Shown here: piece after piece, positions 40,570 through 57,601 of the stretch | Layout: every line of letters starts with the position of its first letter | How positions within the stretch are numbered: the stretch's first letter is position 1 | From: a virus | Lineage: Duplodnaviria > Caudoviricetes | Reading direction: 5' to 3' (one strand) | DNA: 64,000 nucleotides | IMG/VR virus record: IMGVR_UViG_3300022305_000561 | Program-made: the position numbers and the translations under genes | The notes under the pieces: generated by a model | Told to the model about the DNA's origin: nothing | Seen by the model: only the letters and a program-made list of their open reading frames with translations | The model's database searches: none

Positions 40570-41478
40570 TTATTCAGCTTCGGCAATACTCTTGAAGTAA
40601 TCAAGGATATCTTCGTCATCACTAGATACTGCAGCTTTTGGCTGTGGCGCTGGAGTTGACTTAGGTTGAGCAGGTTCCGTGGTTGCTACTCTTTCAGATA
40701 TTGCTGAAGCAGTAGTAACAGGAGCTGCATCTAAGTTCAACACATCAGCCAACTTACGGCTCAATTCTTCAAAAGTCTTAAAGTTCTTTTTATCAAGGAA
40801 CTCTCTCAAAGGATATTGTTTGTTTACTAATGCAACTAACTTATCCTCATCACCATTGAATAACTCAGATGGTGAATCAAACTCTGATTTGTCGTACGAT
40901 GGCCAACCTTCAACTTGTCTAATACGAAGTCTAAAGTTTGCACCTTCCCACAAACTAAATACATTGACTGGAGTTTCATCTTCAAAAGTTGGCTTGGCTT
41001 TATCCATAATCATGTCAAAGATTTTTTTACCAAACTTGAACAACTTAACTTGACCTTCATTCTCAGGATGTTTTGGGTCACTGATTACAAGAATGTTACA
41101 AGTATAGTTTAAACGTCTTTTTTGTTTACGAGCAGTTTCTTTATCTGCTTCTGAACCCGAGTTCCAAAGTTTGGCATTCAAATCACCTAATGGATCTTTC
41201 TCGCCAATTGTAGATAATGAATTCTCAATATACCAACGACCTGTTGGACCTTGAAATCCGTGATTGAAAATTCGTACCCAAGGAAGGTCATCGCCTTCAA
41301 CTTGCGGTAGAAATCTAATGACAGCAGAACCATTACCTGCTTTATCTCTGTCTAGTTTCCAAAGTCTATCATCATCAAAACTTTTTGATGTAGAACCTGG
41401 ATTAGTGATCTTTTCAAACTCAGAAGTAATTTTTGAAAAGTCATTGTTTCTTAATTTTCTTAACGATTGTATGTCCAT
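40570..41478 (-). CDS. gp32: single-stranded DNA-binding protein
   Basis: DDRLWKLDRDKAGNGSAVIRFLP, HGFQGPTGRWYIENS, FKFGKKIFD, GANF.L, YDKSEF, acidic tail. Confidence 0.97.
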   Translation of the reverse strand: MDIQSLRKLRNNDFSKITSEFEKITNPGSTSKSFDDDRLWKLDRDKAGNGSAVIRFLPQVEGDDLPWVRIFNHGFQGPTGRWYIENSLSTIGEKDPLGDLNAKLWNSGSEADKETARKQKRRLNYTCNILVISDPKHPENEGQVKLFKFGKKIFDMIMDKAKPTFEDETPVNVFSLWEGANFRLRIRQVEGWPSYDKSEFDSPSELFNGDEDKLVALVNKQYPLREFLDKKNFKTFEELSRKLADVLNLDAAPVTTASAISERVATTEPAQPKSTPAPQPKAAVSSDDEDILDYFKSIAEAE

Positions 41479-41575
41479 TTTATTTCCTAGTATAGTTGCG
41501 AAGTATTGTGTTGCGAAGTATCATTGTATATTTGCTATAACATTATATATCTCCCATAATTTAGTTTACATATCT

Positions 41576-41604
41576 ATTATACCCTATGAACCTGAAAAAG
41601 TAAA
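41576..41604 (-). promoter_or_regulatory. early/sigma70-type promoter of gp32
   Basis: TTTACT-17 nt-TATAAT. Confidence 0.75.
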
Positions 41605-41616
41605 GATTTATTTTTA

Positions 41617-41685
41617 TATAAATAGGTATAAGTCGCGATGTACCACCATCCACTTATTCTAAAACTATAACGGAGTATCAGCATG
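41617..41685 (+). ncRNA. conserved structured leader, copy 1 (late promoter, hairpin, RBS)
   Basis: TATAAATA-GGT-ATAAGT CGC GATG TACCAC CATC C ACTTAT-TCTAA...GGAG..ATG; covaries with the copies at 43853 and 55786. Confidence 0.7.
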
Positions 41686-42291
41686 ACTATTTATACAACA
41701 TTTATCCCAGACCAATATTGCGTCTATCACACCACCTATTCTGGATCGCTGATGCCAGCGAACTATATTGGCTCAACATCAGTAGACAATGTTCTCAATA
41801 AAAACTATCGTGGGTCTGTTGTTTCAAAAATCTATAAATCAATATGGAAATCTGAAATAAAACTGCATCCAGAACTATTCTCAACTGATATAGTATCATA
41901 TCACGACACTAGATCCGATGCGACTTGGAAAGAACTTCAGGTACAGAGAACTCTAAATGTTGTCAAGAGCGATTTGTTCGTAAATAGATCATATGCCACG
42001 GTAAATGGATTTCAAGATACAATATTTTCGCCAGAAGAACTCGCATCAAGAGGTAAGAACATATCAGATGCGCATGCCAATAGATCTCCAGAAGAAAAAG
42101 CAGCAACGAGTAAGAATCATTCTAATTCTTGGGATAACAAAACACCAGAAGAAAAAGCAGCATCCAGTAAGAAACATTCTGAGACTAAGGCTAAAAAGAA
42201 GGCAGAGTTAAATCTTCAACAAGCGAAGATTGCTCGAGAATTAGTTGTACTTTATCTTGAGGAAACTTTACAAATCTATCCAGTTTCTTAA
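41683..42291 (+). CDS. free-standing GIY-YIG-like (Seg-type) homing endonuclease
   Basis: YCVYHTTY..NYIGST..YRGS..E..Q..NVVKS..FVNRS catalytic domain; (S/T)PEEKAA.SK helical repeats; sits between gp59 and gp32. Confidence 0.75.
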   Translation: MTIYTTFIPDQYCVYHTTYSGSLMPANYIGSTSVDNVLNKNYRGSVVSKIYKSIWKSEIKLHPELFSTDIVSYHDTRSDATWKELQVQRTLNVVKSDLFVNRSYATVNGFQDTIFSPEELASRGKNISDAHANRSPEEKAATSKNHSNSWDNKTPEEKAASSKKHSETKAKKKAELNLQQAKIARELVVLYLEETLQIYPVS

Positions 42292-42811
42292 TTATTAAAA
42301 GATCCTTTCCCCATACTGTTTCTAAGGTTGATTCCCATTTCTCAAGGAACGGCATAAACTTATTTAGTATGAATAAAGACTCGATTGTAATATTATTTCC
42401 AAGATATAGTTTAAACAGTTCAGGAATATCCTTACTGTTATCTATCATTTCAATACAAGATAACCCTTTCTTTTCCATAGCCAATACTACATTATCAATA
42501 TCGTTATTAAAGGTGTTAGAAATACTTTGCTTCCGCCTATTCCATAAAATAAAGTTAGATTCAGAAGAAGCAATATTATGTATTGGGTCATTCTTATATG
42601 CGTAGTTAGATACGAGGAACTGAATTGACTCTGAATCAGTATCAAACTTTCTAGCTATAGCATTATAGATATTATAATCCCGTCTGGCTAAGAAGTTCTC
42701 ATAAGTTACACCAGAGGTCTTGCCTTTATAGTCAAATAGATTATATTTCTTATCGGTAAAGTGTAATCGAACAGCCTTATCATACTGGAACAGTTTGAAC
42801 CCAGTAATCAT
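42191..42811 (-). CDS. gp59: helicase loader
   Basis: GFKLFQ..AVRLHFT..YNLFDYKGK..F.ARRD, LYLGNNITIESL; lies between gp33 and gp32. Confidence 0.85.
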   Translation of the reverse strand: MITGFKLFQYDKAVRLHFTDKKYNLFDYKGKTSGVTYENFLARRDYNIYNAIARKFDTDSESIQFLVSNYAYKNDPIHNIASSESNFILWNRRKQSISNTFNNDIDNVVLAMEKKGLSCIEMIDNSKDIPELFKLYLGNNITIESLFILNKFMPFLEKWESTLETVWGKDLLIIKKLDRFVKFPQDKVQLILEQSSLVEDLTLPSF

Positions 42812-43023
42812 ATTACTGCACAGGTTGTGATTCTAGGCAACTTCCCTTCCTCAATCATCTCCAATTCAATCATATCCTTTAAAGATTTACTAATATTTGA
42901 TACAATATCAATTGGGTCGATAAAGTTATCAGAACAATACAATAGGATTGCATCCATTCTGGTTATTTTCTTTTCAATAGCCATTGTTTCTATAAACAAA
43001 CTGAAATCTACTTCTTCACTCAT
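42808..43023 (-). CDS. gp33: late promoter co-activator
   Basis: FSLFIE..MDAILLYC..IDP..ISKSLKDMIELE. Confidence 0.85.
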   Translation of the reverse strand: MSEEVDFSLFIETMAIEKKITRMDAILLYCSDNFIDPIDIVSNISKSLKDMIELEMIEEGKLPRITTCAVI

Positions 43024-43291
43024 TTATCTCTCCATTCAATAGTTCTAAATAATACCTCTCAGCTGACCTGAAGCCAAGCTTGAACATGTCCTCAGCGAAC
43101 TCAGACATACCTTGAGTTGACATCTTAAGCTCTTCTTCAGTTACAGGTTCTGAATCAGGCTGATCAAGATGTTCTTTGATCTTATAGTACAACTTCCTAT
43201 TCTTGCTTATCATTGAAGTTACACTTGAGTCACAGTAATCAGCCAAGACATCTTTTGCCTCTATCAACAAATCTCTTTCAATACTCATCAT
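43016..43291 (-). CDS. hypothetical protein, MS(I/K)ER(D/E)LL family
   Basis: Paralogous N-terminus and L.QP motif shared with the ORFs at 43278 and 58804. Confidence 0.65.
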   Translation of the reverse strand: MMSIERDLLIEAKDVLADYCDSSVTSMISKNRKLYYKIKEHLDQPDSEPVTEEELKMSTQGMSEFAEDMFKLGFRSAERYYLELLNGEINE

Positions 43292-43514
43292 CTACTCCAA
43301 ACGCATTTATTACTTTCTGTTTATAATCTTCACGAGCAACTCTATACCCAAGTGCATAGCCTCTTTTATATTTTTCTATCCCTTGTTGTAGTGTTAAAGT
43401 ATCTTGCTCAGGTTGAGCAAGTAGCTCTTTGATTTCGATTATGAGATTGGGGCATTTAGTGTTCACACTAAATGCTTCTGCACATCTTTCTAACAAATCT
43501 CTTTCAATACTCAT
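43278..43514 (-). CDS. hypothetical protein, MS(I/K)ER(D/E)LL family
   Basis: MSIERDLL..IKELLAQPEQ. Confidence 0.65.
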   Translation of the reverse strand: MSIERDLLERCAEAFSVNTKCPNLIIEIKELLAQPEQDTLTLQQGIEKYKRGYALGYRVAREDYKQKVINAFGVDDEY

Positions 43515-43792
43515 TTCAACAACTCCAAGTAATAACTCACCATTCTGTACTCCCGCATCAAAATCTCATATTCATCGAATTTCTCATTATATGGTTTCCT
43601 CACAGGGCTATCATATGTTGATTTCATCAATACTGAGTTTGTATATCTGTTACCAAAATCTATAAACCAATCATCAATAACTTTCTTCTGTTGAACCAAC
43701 CCTTCAAAGATTACAGATAGTTTATCTCTTTCCTTCATTGCATAAAGAATTGCATATTGTTTAATCATTTCGCGGTTCTCATTAATTAACAT
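43511..43792 (-). CDS. hypothetical protein
   Basis: 93-aa ORF coupled to the next gene; start lies right at the promoter +1 (possibly leaderless). Confidence 0.55.
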   Translation of the reverse strand: MLINENREMIKQYAILYAMKERDKLSVIFEGLVQQKKVIDDWFIDFGNRYTNSVLMKSTYDSPVRKPYNEKFDEYEILMREYRMVSYYLELLK

Positions 43793-43797
43793 AACTT

Positions 43798-43826
43798 ATT
43801 ATAATATACATTCCTAATTCAGTCAA
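43798..43826 (-). promoter_or_regulatory. sigma70-type promoter
   Basis: TTGACT-17 nt-TATAAT. Confidence 0.7.
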
Positions 43827-43852
43827 GGCTTATTTTAACAGTTTCTAATTAT

Positions 43853-43945
43853 TATAAATAGAAGTAGGCAATAAAAAAAAAATGCCAATCGCGGTGCTAC
43901 CAACACCCATTAGCTCTAATCATTCTTCAGTAAGGAACTACCATG
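43853..43945 (+). ncRNA. conserved structured leader, copy 2
   Basis: TATAAATA...GCCAAT CGC GGTG CTACCAA CACC C ATTAGC-TCTAA...AAGGA..ATG. Confidence 0.65.
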
Positions 43946-44490
43946 ACCAGCAACAATATTTATACCCTCCAATTTTGTACTTACCTAACATCATATTCAG
44001 GTAATAAACTCCCACCCTTCTATATTGGCTCTTCTTCTACTGAACGCATATCCTCAGAAGAGGGATTAATTTATAGAAAAGATCTAAGCGACAAAATGAC
44101 AGGTGAAGGAAATCCTCAATTCGGGAAAACAGGCGAACAAGCAACTTGCTTCGGAAGAACAGGCGAACTTCACCCTCTCTTCGGCAAAACAGGAGAACTC
44201 TCTCCTAACTTCGGCAAAAAACGATCAGATGAAGTTAAGTTATCGATATCCATTAATCACGCAGATGTATCAGGTTCAAATAATCCTAGAGCAAAATCTT
44301 GGAAACTTACATCTCCTCAAGGAATAGAATACTATTGTAAAGGGAATATAGAAACTATAGTCGAAGAACATAATCTAGGAATATCTTCCCTGAAAAATGT
44401 CTAGGATCTATAGTTCCCCCTTTACAATATAAATCTAACCATCCAAAGACAAAAAATACTGTTGGATGGAAACTAGAAATACTAATTTAA
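43943..44490 (+). pseudogene. degenerate GIY-YIG/NUMOD3-like endonuclease (internal deletion and frameshift)
   Basis: YLTSYSGNKLPPFYIGSS jumps straight to GE.NP.FGK repeats; after the A5 run near 44395 another frame continues LGSIVPP..NTVGWKLEIL* to 44490. Confidence 0.7.
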
Positions 44491-45048
44491 TTCTTTTATC
44501 ACATCGCATAATCCATACTGCAACGCTTCTGCTGGACTTAACCAGCAGTCATGCGCAGGAAGCAACACTTTCTTGATCTTATCTTCAGACAAGTTGGTAA
44601 ACTTCTTGTAATGACGTAGCAACATATCATTGGTTAAATCGAACGCCTTAGTAGTCGATACCAGCTCGTGATGCTTCCCAAAACTGGACCATGAATATTG
44701 ATGAGAAAGAATAGCAGTGTTTGGTGTTAATATTCTATTGCCTTTCATACCAGCCATAAAGATCATTAACCCAGCAGAAGCAATTTCTCCAATACCTATA
44801 GTTCTTACAGGAATTGCTGAACCTCTCATCACATCTATCAAAGCAAATCCAGAAGATAATGAACCACCGCCTGAACAAATCATCAGGTTCAATAACTCAG
44901 GTTTCTCTTCAGCAAAGTTTGAATCAATAATCCACTCTATAACACCCCTAATTGAATCATTATTGATATTATCCATCAAAAGATAAAATGCCTGTTGCTC
45001 TTTGTTGCCTGCAATAGATTTATTGATTTGTGAAAACATATTAGCCAT
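44482..45048 (-). CDS. clpP: ClpP-like serine protease
   Basis: ICSGGG, GIGEIASAG (Ser), ILSHQ (His), HDCWLSPAEA..YGLCD (Asp). Confidence 0.9.
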   Translation of the reverse strand: MANMFSQINKSIAGNKEQQAFYLLMDNINNDSIRGVIEWIIDSNFAEEKPELLNLMICSGGGSLSSGFALIDVMRGSAIPVRTIGIGEIASAGLMIFMAGMKGNRILTPNTAILSHQYSWSSFGKHHELVSTTKAFDLTNDMLLRHYKKFTNLSEDKIKKVLLPAHDCWLSPAEALQYGLCDVIKELN

Positions 45049-45316: not shown

Positions 45317-46156
45317 CTATAGGTTTAAAACATTCATCATAAATAATTCAGAATTACCATTATTCATAATAGGAATCCCTTCATATTTGAACTCTTTGAA
45401 CTTTTGTAATATTTCTCGTTCTAAGTTACGGGCATCAATTCCTTTGTCATATTTTAATTCTTGTATGATAGTAGTTTTTATGCCCTCTGGTATACCCATC
45501 CCAGATAATCTTTCTTTAGCTGAAAAATTAGTAATTCCTATCTTATATAATATCAGGTCATCAAGTTCGAACTTAATATAATAACAAGTTCCAGGTTTAC
45601 TGTTGTCGAACCCGCCCTTAATGCAATATGGGCACCCCTTTCCACTAAGGTGTTGATGAGGATACCGTAGGAATGTTCCATGAGACGAGCATTCAATTTC
45701 TACTTTCTCCTTGTCTGATATAAATTTAGTATTATTATATCCATACTTAGAGTTGAAAATTCGATTAGATTTTTTAATAAAGTTTATAGATTTTTTATTT
45801 TCTTTTTTATATTGGAGGTTAGCAATAGCTTCTTCTTTAACTAATTTTCTTTTAGCGATAGATTCTCCTTTAACCGCTATCTTTTTTGCGATAGATTCTT
45901 TTTTGCATTCTGGACAATATGACACCTTCCTTAATAGGCTATCAGGTCTTCTGAGAAACATACCATGGGTTTCATTTATTGTGCAAAATACTTCTATATG
46001 AATTGCTGAACCTTTATATTCGCCGTATCGGAATTTATTTCCGTGAAAACTATTTGCTTTTAGGATAAATTGTTCTGTTGTTATCGTTGAATAATTCCTT
46101 TTGTATGAAATTTTGTAGTAGAAAGTTATGGCAATCCTTACTAAAGGGAATTTCAA
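45317..46156 (-). CDS. putative endonuclease (DUF723-like Zn repeats plus a GIY-YIG/T5orf172-like C-terminus); start codon probably mutated
   Basis: TTEQFILKA..HG..Y, C..HG.F...GCPYC repeats; YYIKF..LYKIGIT..ERL..LEREIL..GNSELF. Confidence 0.65.
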   Translation of the reverse strand: MKFPLVRIAITFYYKISYKRNYSTITTEQFILKANSFHGNKFRYGEYKGSAIHIEVFCTINETHGMFLRRPDSLLRKVSYCPECKKESIAKKIAVKGESIAKRKLVKEEAIANLQYKKENKKSINFIKKSNRIFNSKYGYNNTKFISDKEKVEIECSSHGTFLRYPHQHLSGKGCPYCIKGGFDNSKPGTCYYIKFELDDLILYKIGITNFSAKERLSGMGIPEGIKTTIIQELKYDKGIDARNLEREILQKFKEFKYEGIPIMNNGNSELFMMNVLNL

Positions 46157-46197
46157 ACAGGGTAATTAATCCTATTCTAGCCATACTTCTATTTATA
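46125..46197 (-). ncRNA. late promoter plus three-way-junction leader of the endonuclease gene
   Basis: TATAAATA at 46190-46197; P1 TATGGC/GCCATA, P2 AATAGG-ATTAATTAC-CCTGTT, P3 CCTT-TAGT-AAGG. Confidence 0.45.
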
Positions 46198-55399: not shown

Positions 55400-55711
55400 C
55401 TACTTGCTTGTTGCCACAAATGTTCCATTCCAGTCTCTGGGCAGTTTCTTACTAAGTTCATAATCAGCAATTCGTTGTATCATCATATCATAATAGTAAT
55501 CTAACTCACCATCAAACGAACCTTTCAATGCTTCACATTCTAACGCAGCAGTTGTCCATTCTTGTCGGTTGTAATGCCATAACATCTTATCGTGTATATT
55601 ATCTCGCATCTCTTTAGCCAGAACCAAATTCTTAGGTTCTAATACTGTATAGATGTCTACACCTTCAGTTTTTCCTTTTACGGAAATCGTATCTAACTTT
55701 ATTTCAAACAT
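55400..55711 (-). CDS. C-terminal fragment of the adenylate cyclase (KGK hairpin and TPR-like tail)
   Basis: LDTISVKGKTEGVDIYTV, Y..QEW..A, LP.DWNGTF.ATSK; same frame as ORF 55850-57601; own GAGG RBS. Confidence 0.85.
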   Translation of the reverse strand: MFEIKLDTISVKGKTEGVDIYTVLEPKNLVLAKEMRDNIHDKMLWHYNRQEWTTAALECEALKGSFDGELDYYYDMMIQRIADYELSKKLPRDWNGTFVATSK

Positions 55712-55854
55712 TGATTACCTCTTAGGTGTTGACCAAAGGCATTTATTGATATACCCTACGACAACATATACAATAAATAAATAGTCAAGCTGATACTCCG
55801 TTATAGTTTTAGAATAGGTGGGATGTAGGAATCCGCGACCTATAACTATTTATA
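55712..55854 (-). mobile_element. ORF-less endonuclease-leader cassette (copy 3) interrupting the cyclase gene
   Basis: TATAAATA-GTT-ATAGGT CGC GGAT TCCTAC ATCC C ACCTAT-TCTAAAACTATAACGGAGTATCAGC-TTG ACTATTTAT, nearly identical to 41617-41694. Confidence 0.8.
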
Positions 55855-57601
55855 TAAATTCAGATCTCAACTTATCTATTGTATTTTTACTTAATATTAA
55901 TGATACACCATAATTTTTTGTTTGTCCCTCAAGTCTAGCAGCAAGATTAACTTCATCGCCTAGTATATCATAACTGAACCTATCTTTAGACCCCATATTA
56001 CCAACAAATACCGTTCCTGTACTGAGACCTGCTCCAACTTGTAAAGGTGGTTTACCTTCAGCAACCAATTCAATATTCAATTCTGCTAATGCAACTTCCA
56101 TTTCTTTTGCTGCCTTTAATGATTTAGTTGCCTGATTATCTACATCCAATGGGGCACCCCACCAAGCCATTATTGCATCGCCTATCAGCTTACCCACAGT
56201 ACCATCATTATTCATTATTATTGGAAGCATCCTATCCATATATCTTGTAATAAGATTCGTCAATCCTTGAGGGTCAGTTTTATAATGTTCTGAAATAGTT
56301 GTAAATGACCTGATATCTGAAAAGTATATCGTCAGTTCTTTAGAATCTCCACCTAACTTCAACAGTTCTGGATTCTTCTGTAACTTTTCTACATAGTCAG
56401 GACTTAAGTATGTTCCAAACTGTTTCTTTATCTGGAGTTTTGCTTTAAGTTCTGTTAGGAATAAGGTGGCATATGTGTGTCCAAATACCGTTCCCACAGC
56501 GAGAATAGGTATTGTGATATCAAGAAGATAGTGGAAAGTATTAAATATACTGCTAGAGATAGGATAAAAAGAAAGTAAAATGCCACCGATAATAAAGATT
56601 CCATACTTGACCCTTGCTATTAAGATTGATAAAATGCTAAGTATGACCATAGCAAGTATTTCTGCACCAGTACTCCAATCAGGTCTTGATATATTAGTAC
56701 CTGTTGTTAATGTATTTAGAACGGATGCTTGAAGATGATGTGGAAAGACAGAGCCGTTAGCAGTGGCGACTGGGTTGTTGAGTCCTCTTGCAGATAATCC
56801 AACAATGACGATACTGGAGTTAAAGGACTCTGGAAGGTGGCTTGCTGAATATTCTGTAAATGTTGCTGGCTTAACCCATATCCTACCGATACTGTCTGTT
56901 TGAATCTTTCCGAACTTTGGGATTCTGACGGCTTCAATAGAATCATCATTGACTTTGACTTGAAAGGAAGGGTCTCCTGAAGCGACCCGCAATGTTTCAA
57001 GACTGATACTGGGGTACAATAGTCCGTTGGAATTGACCACCATTGGGATTCTTCGGGTAACGCCATCAATTTCTGGGAGTGTATTAACAACACCAACACC
57101 AGCAGCAGTATCATTAAACTCTTGTATGTTTGGCTGAATGTTACCATATTTCACTCCGATAGATTTAGCATCACCACCAATAACGGATACGCCTGGACGA
57201 AATGCTGCATACTTATCTGAAAAATATGAATCGTCTATTGCTGTTTGTGGTAGAACTACTGGATATTCTTTTAATGTGTTAGTAAAATTATTGTCGTATC
57301 CTGCTCTATCCACATCTAGAAGAAAAATATTAAAAACAACCAAGCCAGCGTTGAGATCATAAAGGTTTTTAATAAGAGCTGAATATTCGTTGCGAGGAAA
57401 AGGAAATTGACCTTTTTGAGAAATTGTTTCATCATCTATGTTCACCAATACTATGTCTGAATGTTGTATATCTTGTGTAAGAAGAGTATCAAAATATCTT
57501 AATCTGATACTCTCTACAAAAGTTGGGTCTAATACCCTTATCCCTACAATAAGTGATAATGTAATTAATGCACACCAGCGGGATAAGAGTATTTTTTTCA
57601 T
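55850..57601 (-). CDS. CHASE2-domain class III adenylate cyclase, N-terminal part
   Basis: TM, IVLVNIDD..GQFPFPR, DGVTRRIP (CHASE2), three TMs, FSDIRSFT, KLIGDAIMA.WGAP, GNMGS..YDILGDEVNLAARLE. Confidence 0.93.
   Translation of the reverse strand: MKKILLSRWCALITLSLIVGIRVLDPTFVESIRLRYFDTLLTQDIQHSDIVLVNIDDETISQKGQFPFPRNEYSALIKNLYDLNAGLVVFNIFLLDVDRAGYDNNFTNTLKEYPVVLPQTAIDDSYFSDKYAAFRPGVSVIGGDAKSIGVKYGNIQPNIQEFNDTAAGVGVVNTLPEIDGVTRRIPMVVNSNGLLYPSISLETLRVASGDPSFQVKVNDDSIEAVRIPKFGKIQTDSIGRIWVKPATFTEYSASHLPESFNSSIVIVGLSARGLNNPVATANGSVFPHHLQASVLNTLTTGTNISRPDWSTGAEILAMVILSILSILIARVKYGIFIIGGILLSFYPISSSIFNTFHYLLDITIPILAVGTVFGHTYATLFLTELKAKLQIKKQFGTYLSPDYVEKLQKNPELLKLGGDSKELTIYFSDIRSFTTISEHYKTDPQGLTNLITRYMDRMLPIIMNNDGTVGKLIGDAIMAWWGAPLDVDNQATKSLKAAKEMEVALAELNIELVAEGKPPLQVGAGLSTGTVFVGNMGSKDRFSYDILGDEVNLAARLEGQTKNYGVSLILSKNTIDKLRSEFI

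Follow-up and report, generated by a model that had tools for sequence, protein, structure and literature searches.

A Portable Phage Cassette with Facing Late-Promoter Cores and a Hairpin Conserved on the Strand Opposite Homing-Endonuclease Genes

RESULTS

Three copies of a leader cassette in a T4-like phage genome

We analyzed a 64,000-nucleotide stretch of the virus record IMGVR_UViG_3300022305_000561 (Caudoviricetes), here called the window, which contains three copies of a cassette of about 82 bp associated with homing-endonuclease genes. The window belongs to a distant T4-like phage whose closest cultured relatives are Pelagibacter phage HTVC008M and Methylophilales phage Melnitz (34 to 37% protein identity), and its best gp32 matches are from cyanophages (about 50% identity). 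Copy 1 heads a gene for a 202-residue protein with a GIY-YIG-like fold (41683 to 42291, plus strand), which lies between the gene for gp32 (40570 to 41478, minus strand) and the gene for a gp59-like helicase loader (42191 to 42811, minus strand) and opposes both. Copy 2 heads an endonuclease-like gene for 153 residues (43943 to 44404, plus strand), which also opposes its flanking genes; the ClpP gene is at 44482 to 45048 on the minus strand. Copy 3 stands alone in a split gene for a CHASE2 adenylate cyclase (55400 to 57601, minus strand).

In copy 1, an exact TATAAATA, the T4-type late-promoter core, was found on the plus strand at 41617 to 41624 (the outer core), 3 nt before the main hairpin. 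The hairpin (41628 to 41657, minus strand) is composed of 6 bp, a bulge, 1 bp, a second bulge, 4 bp and a 6-nt loop. It is followed at 41658 to 41682 by TCTAA (UUAGA on the antisense strand), a small helix (A-ACT/AGT-A, enclosing ATAACGG) and TCAGC, and the Shine-Dalgarno sequence GGAG (41672 to 41675) lies within the small-helix region. When this segment is read on the antisense strand, it gives a hairpin with an anti-Shine-Dalgarno sequence and a predicted 5' end, GCUGAU. A second exact TATAAATA, the inner core, lies on the minus strand at 41688 to 41695, in codons 2 to 5 of the endonuclease gene, and faces the outer core. The predicted antisense RNA would be about 67 nt long (41616 to 41682, minus strand; cmsearch 74.7 bits, E value 6e-19), with the reverse complement of the outer core forming a U-rich tail behind its hairpin.

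Copy 2 has the same plan with a more distant outer core (43853 to 43860, plus strand), which is 23 nt from the main hairpin (43884 to 43914, minus strand). A run of ten A (about 43874 to 43883, plus strand) abuts the hairpin and would place U10 behind it in the antisense RNA. The inner TATAAATA is at 43957 to 43964 (minus strand), in codons 5 to 8 and 5 nt from CAGC. The predicted antisense RNA of about 80 nt (43872 to 43951, minus strand; 41.4 bits, E value 2e-9) would contain, in order, a 5' hairpin, CUGGUCAU/AUGAUUAG, with the anti-Shine-Dalgarno sequence in its loop, then UUAGA, the bulged hairpin and U10. Copy 3 occupies 55776 to 55855 with its antisense strand on the plus strand and its sense direction on the minus strand (73.7 bits). 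Its outer core is at 55847 to 55854 (minus strand), its hairpin at 55814 to 55843, its TCTAA at 55809 to 55813 and its TTG at 55786 to 55788; the inner core, AATAAATA, is at 55776 to 55783 (plus strand), and the predicted antisense RNA would cover 55789 to 55855 (plus strand).

An earlier sequence-only reading of this DNA had reported three hairpins, each preceded by an exact TATAAATA, and we verified their positions, their sequences and the preceding motif. That reading had also described TCTAA, a Shine-Dalgarno sequence and a start codon (ATG, ATG and TTG) after each hairpin; the order holds, but the TTG of copy 3 opens just a 10-codon stub, so this copy lacks an endonuclease gene. A scan of both window strands with the structural pattern (stem, CGC, stem, loop, stem, C, stem) returned these three copies only. 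When the window was searched with a covariance model built from relatives, the copies gave the scores listed above, and the next best match in 128 kb scored 10.5 bits. The ATAAATA core itself was also found about 25 to 30 nt upstream of several long open reading frames (ORFs) in the window.

The main helix is preserved on the strand opposite the gene

Relatives of the cassette were collected by three pattern scans of viral metagenome contigs, which gave at least 212 loci. A hairpin parser that allowed up to two non-Watson-Crick pairs of any kind in the outer stem yielded at least 153 distinct cassette copies, among which at least 134 hairpin sequences and 49 outer stems were unique. Since the parser is indifferent to the type of mismatch, it does not select for A.C over G.T. 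The leaders fell into two subtypes: subtype A (copy 2) reads TCTAATCATTCT ... AGGA ... ATGACCAGC, and subtype B (copies 1 and 3) reads TCTAAY-NCT-(about 7 nt)-GGAGN'-ATCAGC-ATG-ANT-ATT-TAT.

Comparison of the 134 unique hairpins showed that the CGC/C element, described earlier as an internal loop, is really one covarying base pair (G-C or A-T) between two single-base bulges. The middle base of CGC and the lone pyrimidine formed G-C in 78 hairpins, A-T in 32 and A.C in 24, while G.T, expected about 19 times under independence, was not seen at all. In the six-pair outer stem, 786 of 804 pairs were Watson-Crick, and the other 18 were all A.C or C.A, with no G.T. For the outer stem and the middle pair combined (938 pairs), the gene strand contained 42 A.C and no G.T. 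Because each gene-strand A.C corresponds to a G.U on the complementary strand, the main helix is fully preserved on the antisense strand only. Copy 2 was said to contain one mismatch; this is a C.A on the plus strand, yet a G.U pair on the minus strand.

The antisense-strand alignments gave consistent results. In an alignment of 49 gap-free sequences, 99.0% of the cells were standard pairs, compared with 75.8% after shuffling and 27 to 48% when the partners were slid. A second alignment of 93 distinct model matches from another hundred loci gave 99.1%, compared with 75.2% and 27 to 62%, respectively; about 36 of its cells were G.U, and ten of the pairs had no unpaired cell. All 11 main-helix pairs changed on both sides in the 49-sequence alignment. 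The earlier idea of a structured element with real covariation behind a T4-type late promoter is supported. In the antisense orientation, 99.5 to 99.8% of the cells were paired in the main helix and 97 to 98% in helix 1 (the small helix at the Shine-Dalgarno sequence), and the conserved antisense structure as a whole had double changes in 13 to 14 of its 15 pairs. The strand asymmetry was observed in every orientation class of the flanking genes.

A second, small helix covering part of the Shine-Dalgarno sequence had been overlooked in the sequence-only reading. In subtype B, NCT pairs with AGN', with N:N' being GC in 37, AT in 32 and TA in 5 of 78 cases, and 48 of the 78 helices are closed by a pair that reads C.A on the gene strand and U.G on the antisense strand. 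The second helix of subtype A has 8 bp, formed by CTAATCAT with ATGACCAG; in 37 to 38 of 39 cases, two of its pairs read A.C on the gene strand and thus G.U on the other. The terminal loop of the main hairpin is C/A-rich, as previously stated, in this window; elsewhere the gene-strand loops include TTGGCG, TGGGGA and CTGGAA.

The single-sequence folding energies were ordinary (z scores of +0.3 to -1.0); the case for a conserved structure is one of comparison, not of thermodynamics. Two competing pairings had been suggested. The minimum-energy folds of copies 1 and 3 contain the pairing GTTATAG/CTATAAC, on which covariation is uninformative because the sequence is common to these two copies only. 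The GGCA/TGCC pairing of copy 2 spans the A run and was rejected as a feature of the family.

The first codons carry a promoter-like sequence

In subtype B, the nine bases after the ATG read A-N-T-A-T-T-T-A-T and are constrained at the nucleotide level. TATTTAT, which had gone unremarked in codons 2 to 4, is the reverse complement of the T4-type late-promoter core ATAAATA. The second base of codon 2 (+5) is free (C in 49, A in 26, T in 19 and G in 15 copies, encoding Thr, Asn, Ile or Ser), while 101 of 109 copies have T as the wobble base of the same codon (position 6). At codon 3, 90% of the copies use ATT, compared with 37% of the Ile codons elsewhere in the same genes. When codon 2 encodes Ser, it is AGT in 14 of 15 copies, compared with 17% of the Ser codons elsewhere in these genes. 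Column conservation is at least 0.9 from -11 to +12 (except at +5) and falls to a background of 0.3 to 0.5 from +13. In both subtypes the spacing CAGC-N5-TATTTAT is constant, though the subtypes differ in which side of CAGC the ATG occupies. By sequence, each window copy has an opposite-strand promoter core at the 5' end of the gene or stub that it heads.

The cassette precedes genes for unrelated proteins (HNH_3, GIY-YIG, DUF559/Vsr-like and zinc finger), all of which begin M-x-I-Y. This common start in unrelated proteins indicates that the first four codons belong to the cassette and not to the enzymes. The earlier statement that the hairpin travels with GIY-YIG-like genes therefore holds for the link to homing endonucleases but is too narrow, since the other families, or no endonuclease at all, may follow.

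The outer promoter and the U-rich stretch behind the antisense hairpin

In 108 of 153 copies, 3 to 6 nt separate the end of the outer core from the hairpin that follows; in the rest the distance is larger. When the outer core is close, the hairpin on the antisense strand is followed by, for example, ACUUUUAUUUAU; other tails are AU5-10. Among the 45 copies with a distant outer core, 24 have four or more consecutive A directly next to the hairpin (ten in copy 2). Judged from the sequences, the A runs look like compensation for a required U run where the outer core is distant.

Cassettes with a GCCAAT outer stem and a distant promoter (L004, L005, L066, L070, L075, L090 and others) also have an extra inverted repeat, TATATAAC-loop-GTTATATG followed by CAATAAAAAT, located 20 to 45 nt upstream of the hairpin. 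By its sequence, the repeat looks like a second conserved hairpin particular to this sub-class.

The cassette belongs to phages

The relatives of the first nuclease (ORF 41683-42291) found in viral metagenomes all have the same leader. When anchors were picked by the downstream signature alone, the hairpin was present in 128 of 138, compared with 1.9% after shuffling. The same pattern produced 31 matches in 185,579 bacterial and archaeal genomes (one per species), one of which fits the covariance model; its near-absence from these cellular genomes indicates that the cassette belongs to phages. The single match (L233:660-723) is in a 1.8-kb contig of a Geobacteraceae metagenome bin and is most likely misbinned phage DNA.

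In line with the sequence-only reading, which recognized no named family, the cassette matches no known RNA family. Rfam (release 15) gave no match anywhere in the window at gathering thresholds, and with permissive filters the region 41550 to 44000 gave three chance-level matches, none of them at the copies. ARAGORN found no tRNA or tmRNA in the window, and a tRNA-like minihelix was rejected on this ground. Among cultured relatives, megablast of the region gave no match and blastn of both leaders gave chance-level short matches only. The covariance model found no match in HTVC008M, Melnitz or T4, which is weak evidence where the first-look filter passed no candidates.

Cassette boundaries, solo copies and the split cyclase gene

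The homology between copies 1 and 3 runs from the outer core to TATTTAT only, without similarity on either side. Of the 13 differences in the shared block, 11 fall within the hairpin, where the outer stem has one compensatory change and the inner stem and loop have been replaced; the remaining two concern a base directly after the outer core and the start codon (ATG and TTG). Solo copies are observed in the family as well, as about 13 of the 153 cassettes precede short ORFs or none.

Copy 3 splits the cyclase gene into 55850-57601 and 55400-55711. The halves have a Pfam match and match PHROG 35576 at positions 1 to 584 and 599 to 666. Comparison with the intact genes of Melnitz and HTVC008M places the junctions at ...SEF/I-stop and M/FEIK..., with zero residues lost. 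The cassette supplies the stop codon of the first part, and a ribosome-binding site and an ATG about 60 nt on restart the frame, giving two separately startable ORFs.

The nuclease genes

ORF 41683-42291 belongs to PHROG 10820/314, and sequence searches of Pfam, NCBIfam and PDB gave no match to it. The best structural match of its AlphaFold2 model (predicted local distance difference test score, 83.9) was the I-TevI catalytic domain (Z score of 6.9, root mean square deviation of 3.3 to 3.4 Å over 84 to 88 of 94 to 97 residues), and further matches were PD-T4-3, UvrC, Eco29kI and Slx1. The Z score is moderate, but all of the domain-wide matches share the GIY-YIG alpha/beta fold, and the model thus assigns this fold to the protein. 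The family alignment conserves YIG, an invariant Arg, a Glu and an Asn. The protein is shorter than most of its relatives (202 compared with 230 to 320 residues), and its C-terminal part may be a DNA-binding region that has been truncated or remodelled. The final 33 codons of this ORF overlap the 3' end of the gp59-like gene by 101 nt (42191 to 42291) on opposite strands. In ORF 43943-44404, the resemblance to the GIY-YIG family is confined to the first 38 or so residues and is followed by NUMOD3 repeats; the gene is probably degenerate.

Another nuclease-like gene in the window, beside ClpP (45317 to 46156, minus strand; 279 residues, T5orf172/MUG113 domain, PHROG 681 "endonuclease"), has no cassette, and an exact TATAAATA lies just upstream of it at 46190 to 46197 (minus strand). 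The T4 gene segD, the one antisense-oriented T4 endonuclease gene, was also considered and rejected, as it has no such leader and its protein has no detectable relation. The nuclease relatives in Straboviridae (Bp7, Aeromonas, Klebsiella and Acinetobacter phages, and a Rhizobium phage) have other leaders, with unrelated hairpins in those examined, and the cassette was found in none of them. The Straboviridae genes (L218:300-394, L220:330-397 and L219:340-397) are inserted between the tail-tube and portal genes. The leaders of the Aeromonas and Acinetobacter phages have TATAAATA followed by a perfect palindrome, and the leader of the Klebsiella phage has a stem that pairs with GGAGG and so sequesters the ribosome-binding site.

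DISCUSSION

A candidate cis-antisense RNA

The selfish genes of large phages are mainly those for homing endonucleases. From the observations described above, we infer that an antisense transcript starts from the inner core, terminates at the hairpin and represses the nuclease: the cassette would be a portable module in which two facing late-promoter cores make an mRNA and an antisense RNA that restrains the nuclease. We consider this the probable reading, with a probability of about 0.6.

According to this proposal, the cassette would constitute the 5' end of the homing-endonuclease gene, and transcription of the nuclease mRNA would begin from the outer core, at the base of the hairpin. The inner core, located in codons 2 to 4 (subtype B) or 5 to 7 (subtype A), would initiate a small opposite-strand RNA whose first base, given T4 promoter spacing, is predicted to be the G of GCUG. 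The predicted length of this RNA is about 65 nt for copies 1 and 3 and about 80 nt for copy 2. The RNA would begin with a small 5' hairpin presenting an anti-Shine-Dalgarno sequence (CUCC or UUCC) in its loop, continue with the invariant UUAGA and the main hairpin (about -9 kcal/mol, with two bulged G), and reach a U-rich tail, supplied by the reverse complement of the outer promoter or by a separate U run, where at least part of the transcripts would end. Being complementary to the entire mRNA leader of the nuclease, the antisense RNA would keep ribosomes from binding or cause the duplex to be cleaved. Transcription from two facing promoters would interfere as well, and the net outcome would be a low output of a potentially toxic nuclease.

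Several points weigh against this proposal. The antisense RNA and both of its ends are predictions from the sequence alone. The hairpin is of modest calculated stability, has two bulges and is often separated from the U-rich stretch by 2 to 3 non-U bases; a simple scan for the terminator consensus does not call the hairpins. Such a terminator is likely to be weak and to allow read-through into the neighboring gene, and termination at the bulged hairpin is probably partial. Exact TATTTAT is present in only 22 of the 40 subtype-A copies. ATT-TAT is a natural way to encode I-Y in an AT-rich genome, although the excess in codon usage argues against this explanation alone. The mismatch limit of the parser inflates the percentage of pairs, while leaving the kind of mismatch unbiased. 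Furthermore, DNA hairpins also tolerate G.T better than A.C, and the asymmetry therefore fixes the strand, not the molecule (RNA or DNA). Finally, the two invariant bulged G and the invariant UUAGA go beyond what termination explains. Antisense RNAs such as CopA typically contain bulged stems, which favor faster pairing and protection from RNase III. By analogy, a CopA-like role may account for the two invariant bulges.

Alternative explanations

It may be proposed that the cassette serves its neighbors, with the antisense hairpin ending or attenuating transcripts of neighboring phage genes that run backward through the nuclease gene, and the inner promoter mainly feeding late transcription into the neighbor, any effect on the nuclease being incidental. 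A crude ORF call shows the nuclease gene running against both flanking genes in 79 of 121 loci, its upstream neighbor is divergent in about 73%, and both full window copies are so placed, between the gp32 and gp59-like genes at copy 1 and on the ClpP side at copy 2. An embedded promoter serving a neighboring essential gene is documented for T4 segG and gene 32 (PMC2988022), and a weak terminator makes read-through plausible. However, the strand asymmetry and the inner promoter are kept in the 20 loci whose flanking genes both run with the nuclease gene, and both persist in the solo copy 3, whose antisense strand points toward no gene start. Such a function has no need for an anti-Shine-Dalgarno hairpin, a fixed GCUG start or an exact overlap with the leader, and at copy 1 gp32 has its own sigma-70-like promoter match between the hairpin and its start. 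We regard a service to the neighbors as unlikely to be the main function; read-through into the neighboring gene is nevertheless a serious competing explanation or an additional role.

Within the antisense proposal, the fast-changing top of the hairpin could be a specificity determinant, as loops are in the copy-control RNAs of plasmids, and the RNA could act in trans only on its own kind, thus creating incompatibility among homing endonucleases. In a mixed infection, a cassette already present would shut down newly arriving copies of the same nuclease, in the manner of multicopy inhibition, and would spare the other nucleases of the genome. This idea fits the finding that none of 23 same-contig pairs share a hairpin, and it also fits the near-identity of copies 1 and 3 outside the hairpin, with 11 of their 13 differences inside it. 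We offer it as a rather doubtful extension of the antisense proposal.

The sequence-only reading had proposed an operator or switch among other options. A hairpin in the sense leader could be a 5'-terminal stabilizer or a site bound by the nuclease or another phage protein to control translation. A spacing of 5 nt between core and hairpin would put the late transcript start at the first base of the hairpin, as in 5' stabilizing hairpins; the invariant bulges and UCUAA resemble protein contacts, and I-TevI is a known autorepressor, though acting on DNA (PMC2988022). However, the 42 A.C without a single G.U on the sense strand, with the same bias in the second helix, mean that the conserved pairing fits the strand opposite the gene, and an element in the sense 5' untranslated region is not the best reading. 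The cassette serves at least four unrelated nuclease families, which makes a contact between cognate nuclease and RNA unlikely; at the 3-nt spacing the transcript would miss the first stem bases, and the nucleotide-level constraint on codons 2 to 4 is left unexplained. We consider a sense-strand function quite improbable.

A single-stranded DNA hairpin of the bottom strand, used in replication, recombination or mobility, for example as a boundary or exchange point for nuclease swapping, would agree with the asymmetry, with the solo copies and with the sharp block of homology common to unrelated genes, as in the PeSL cassettes of T4-type phages (PMC2839356, PMC4122927), but is very unlikely, since nothing in the sequence demands a DNA fold, the fixed-distance promoter cores, U-rich tail and anti-Shine-Dalgarno loop make sense for RNA only, and recombination requires homology, not a conserved bulged helix with covarying stems.

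Relation to known systems

The closest parallel to the proposed antisense RNA is RNA-OUT of IS10/Tn10, a 69-nt cis-antisense RNA transcribed from a facing promoter over the transposase initiation region (PMC5006887). In both cases a mobile element would curb its own enzyme via a stem-loop antisense RNA complementary to the translation initiation region. Unlike IS10, the cassette has T4-type late promoters and a phage homing endonuclease, and the two have no sequence relation; the predicted antisense RNA has two hairpins with the anti-Shine-Dalgarno sequence in a loop and would cover the whole leader, while the IS10 RNA covers the first 35 nt.

In the T-even phages, the genes for I-TevI, I-TevII, I-TevIII, segB and Aeh1 mobE have a late promoter inside a hairpin that sequesters the ribosome-binding site, and late transcripts lack one arm, so that the site is freed (PMC2988022). 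The cassette resembles them in that a late promoter and an RNA hairpin immediately precede the gene for a phage homing endonuclease and presumably limit its synthesis. However, the cassette promoter precedes the hairpin, and the pairing is conserved on the opposite strand. The earlier view that the design differs from that of the T-even hairpins is borne out, as the main hairpin ends before TCTAA, at least 14 nt upstream of GGAG; only the separate helix of 3 to 4 bp reaches the last Shine-Dalgarno bases.

Dassa et al. (2009) described hairpins in 15 of 16 leaders of free-standing GIY-YIG and Vsr-like endonucleases in "fractured genes" of ocean metagenomes; 10 of these hairpins include TATAAATA, two conserved motifs pair in the stem, and the hairpins were read as sense-strand translational attenuators (PMC2677866). 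Their gp41-7 locus keeps a hairpin without an endonuclease gene, like copy 3. Compared by description only, these hairpins may be the same cassette; the 2009 account gives no strand analysis, antisense promoter or family definition.

The PeSLs of T4-type phages are portable cassettes of an early (sigma-70-type) promoter and a terminator stem-loop that head ORFs of the hyperplastic regions (PMC2839356, PMC4122927). Like the PeSL, the cassette is a small conserved module of promoter and stem-loop that flanks variable genes and forms an exchange point between unrelated sequences. Unlike the PeSL, it has late-type cores, (N)ATAAATA, on both strands, a specific bulged hairpin and nuclease genes. 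CfrI of cyanophage S-PM2 is a detected antisense RNA of about 225 nt that bridges an endonuclease gene and psbA (Millard et al. 2010, reviewed in PMC2984593). It resembles the predicted RNA in being an antisense RNA of a T4-like phage over a homing-endonuclease gene and has no known relation to the cassette in sequence or structure. A stable hairpin also lies upstream of the ribosome-binding site of seg43(25), a gene-splitting GIY-YIG endonuclease gene of Aeromonas phage 25, and spares that site; its function is unknown (PMC2988022). The cassette resembles it in sparing the ribosome-binding site, as judged by description for this single case. The bulged hairpin, its strand and the facing promoters are absent from the accounts of Dassa et al., Edgell et al. 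2010 (PMC2988022), CfrI and the PeSLs.

Significance

Whatever the molecule, the covariance model flags homing-endonuclease insertions and their relics in phage metagenomes, and the cassette accounts for "orphan" late promoters and hairpins such as copy 3, which splits the cyclase gene. It is also a compact two-promoter module amenable to T4 late transcription systems. If the antisense proposal is correct, the cassette would represent a second general restraint on phage homing endonucleases, beside the prevailing hairpins that hide the ribosome-binding site, and a portable antisense control for several nuclease families, with at least 150 distinct copies in contigs of uncultured phages. Its RNA would be among the few conserved small RNAs of T4-like phages and would parallel the antisense control of transposases.

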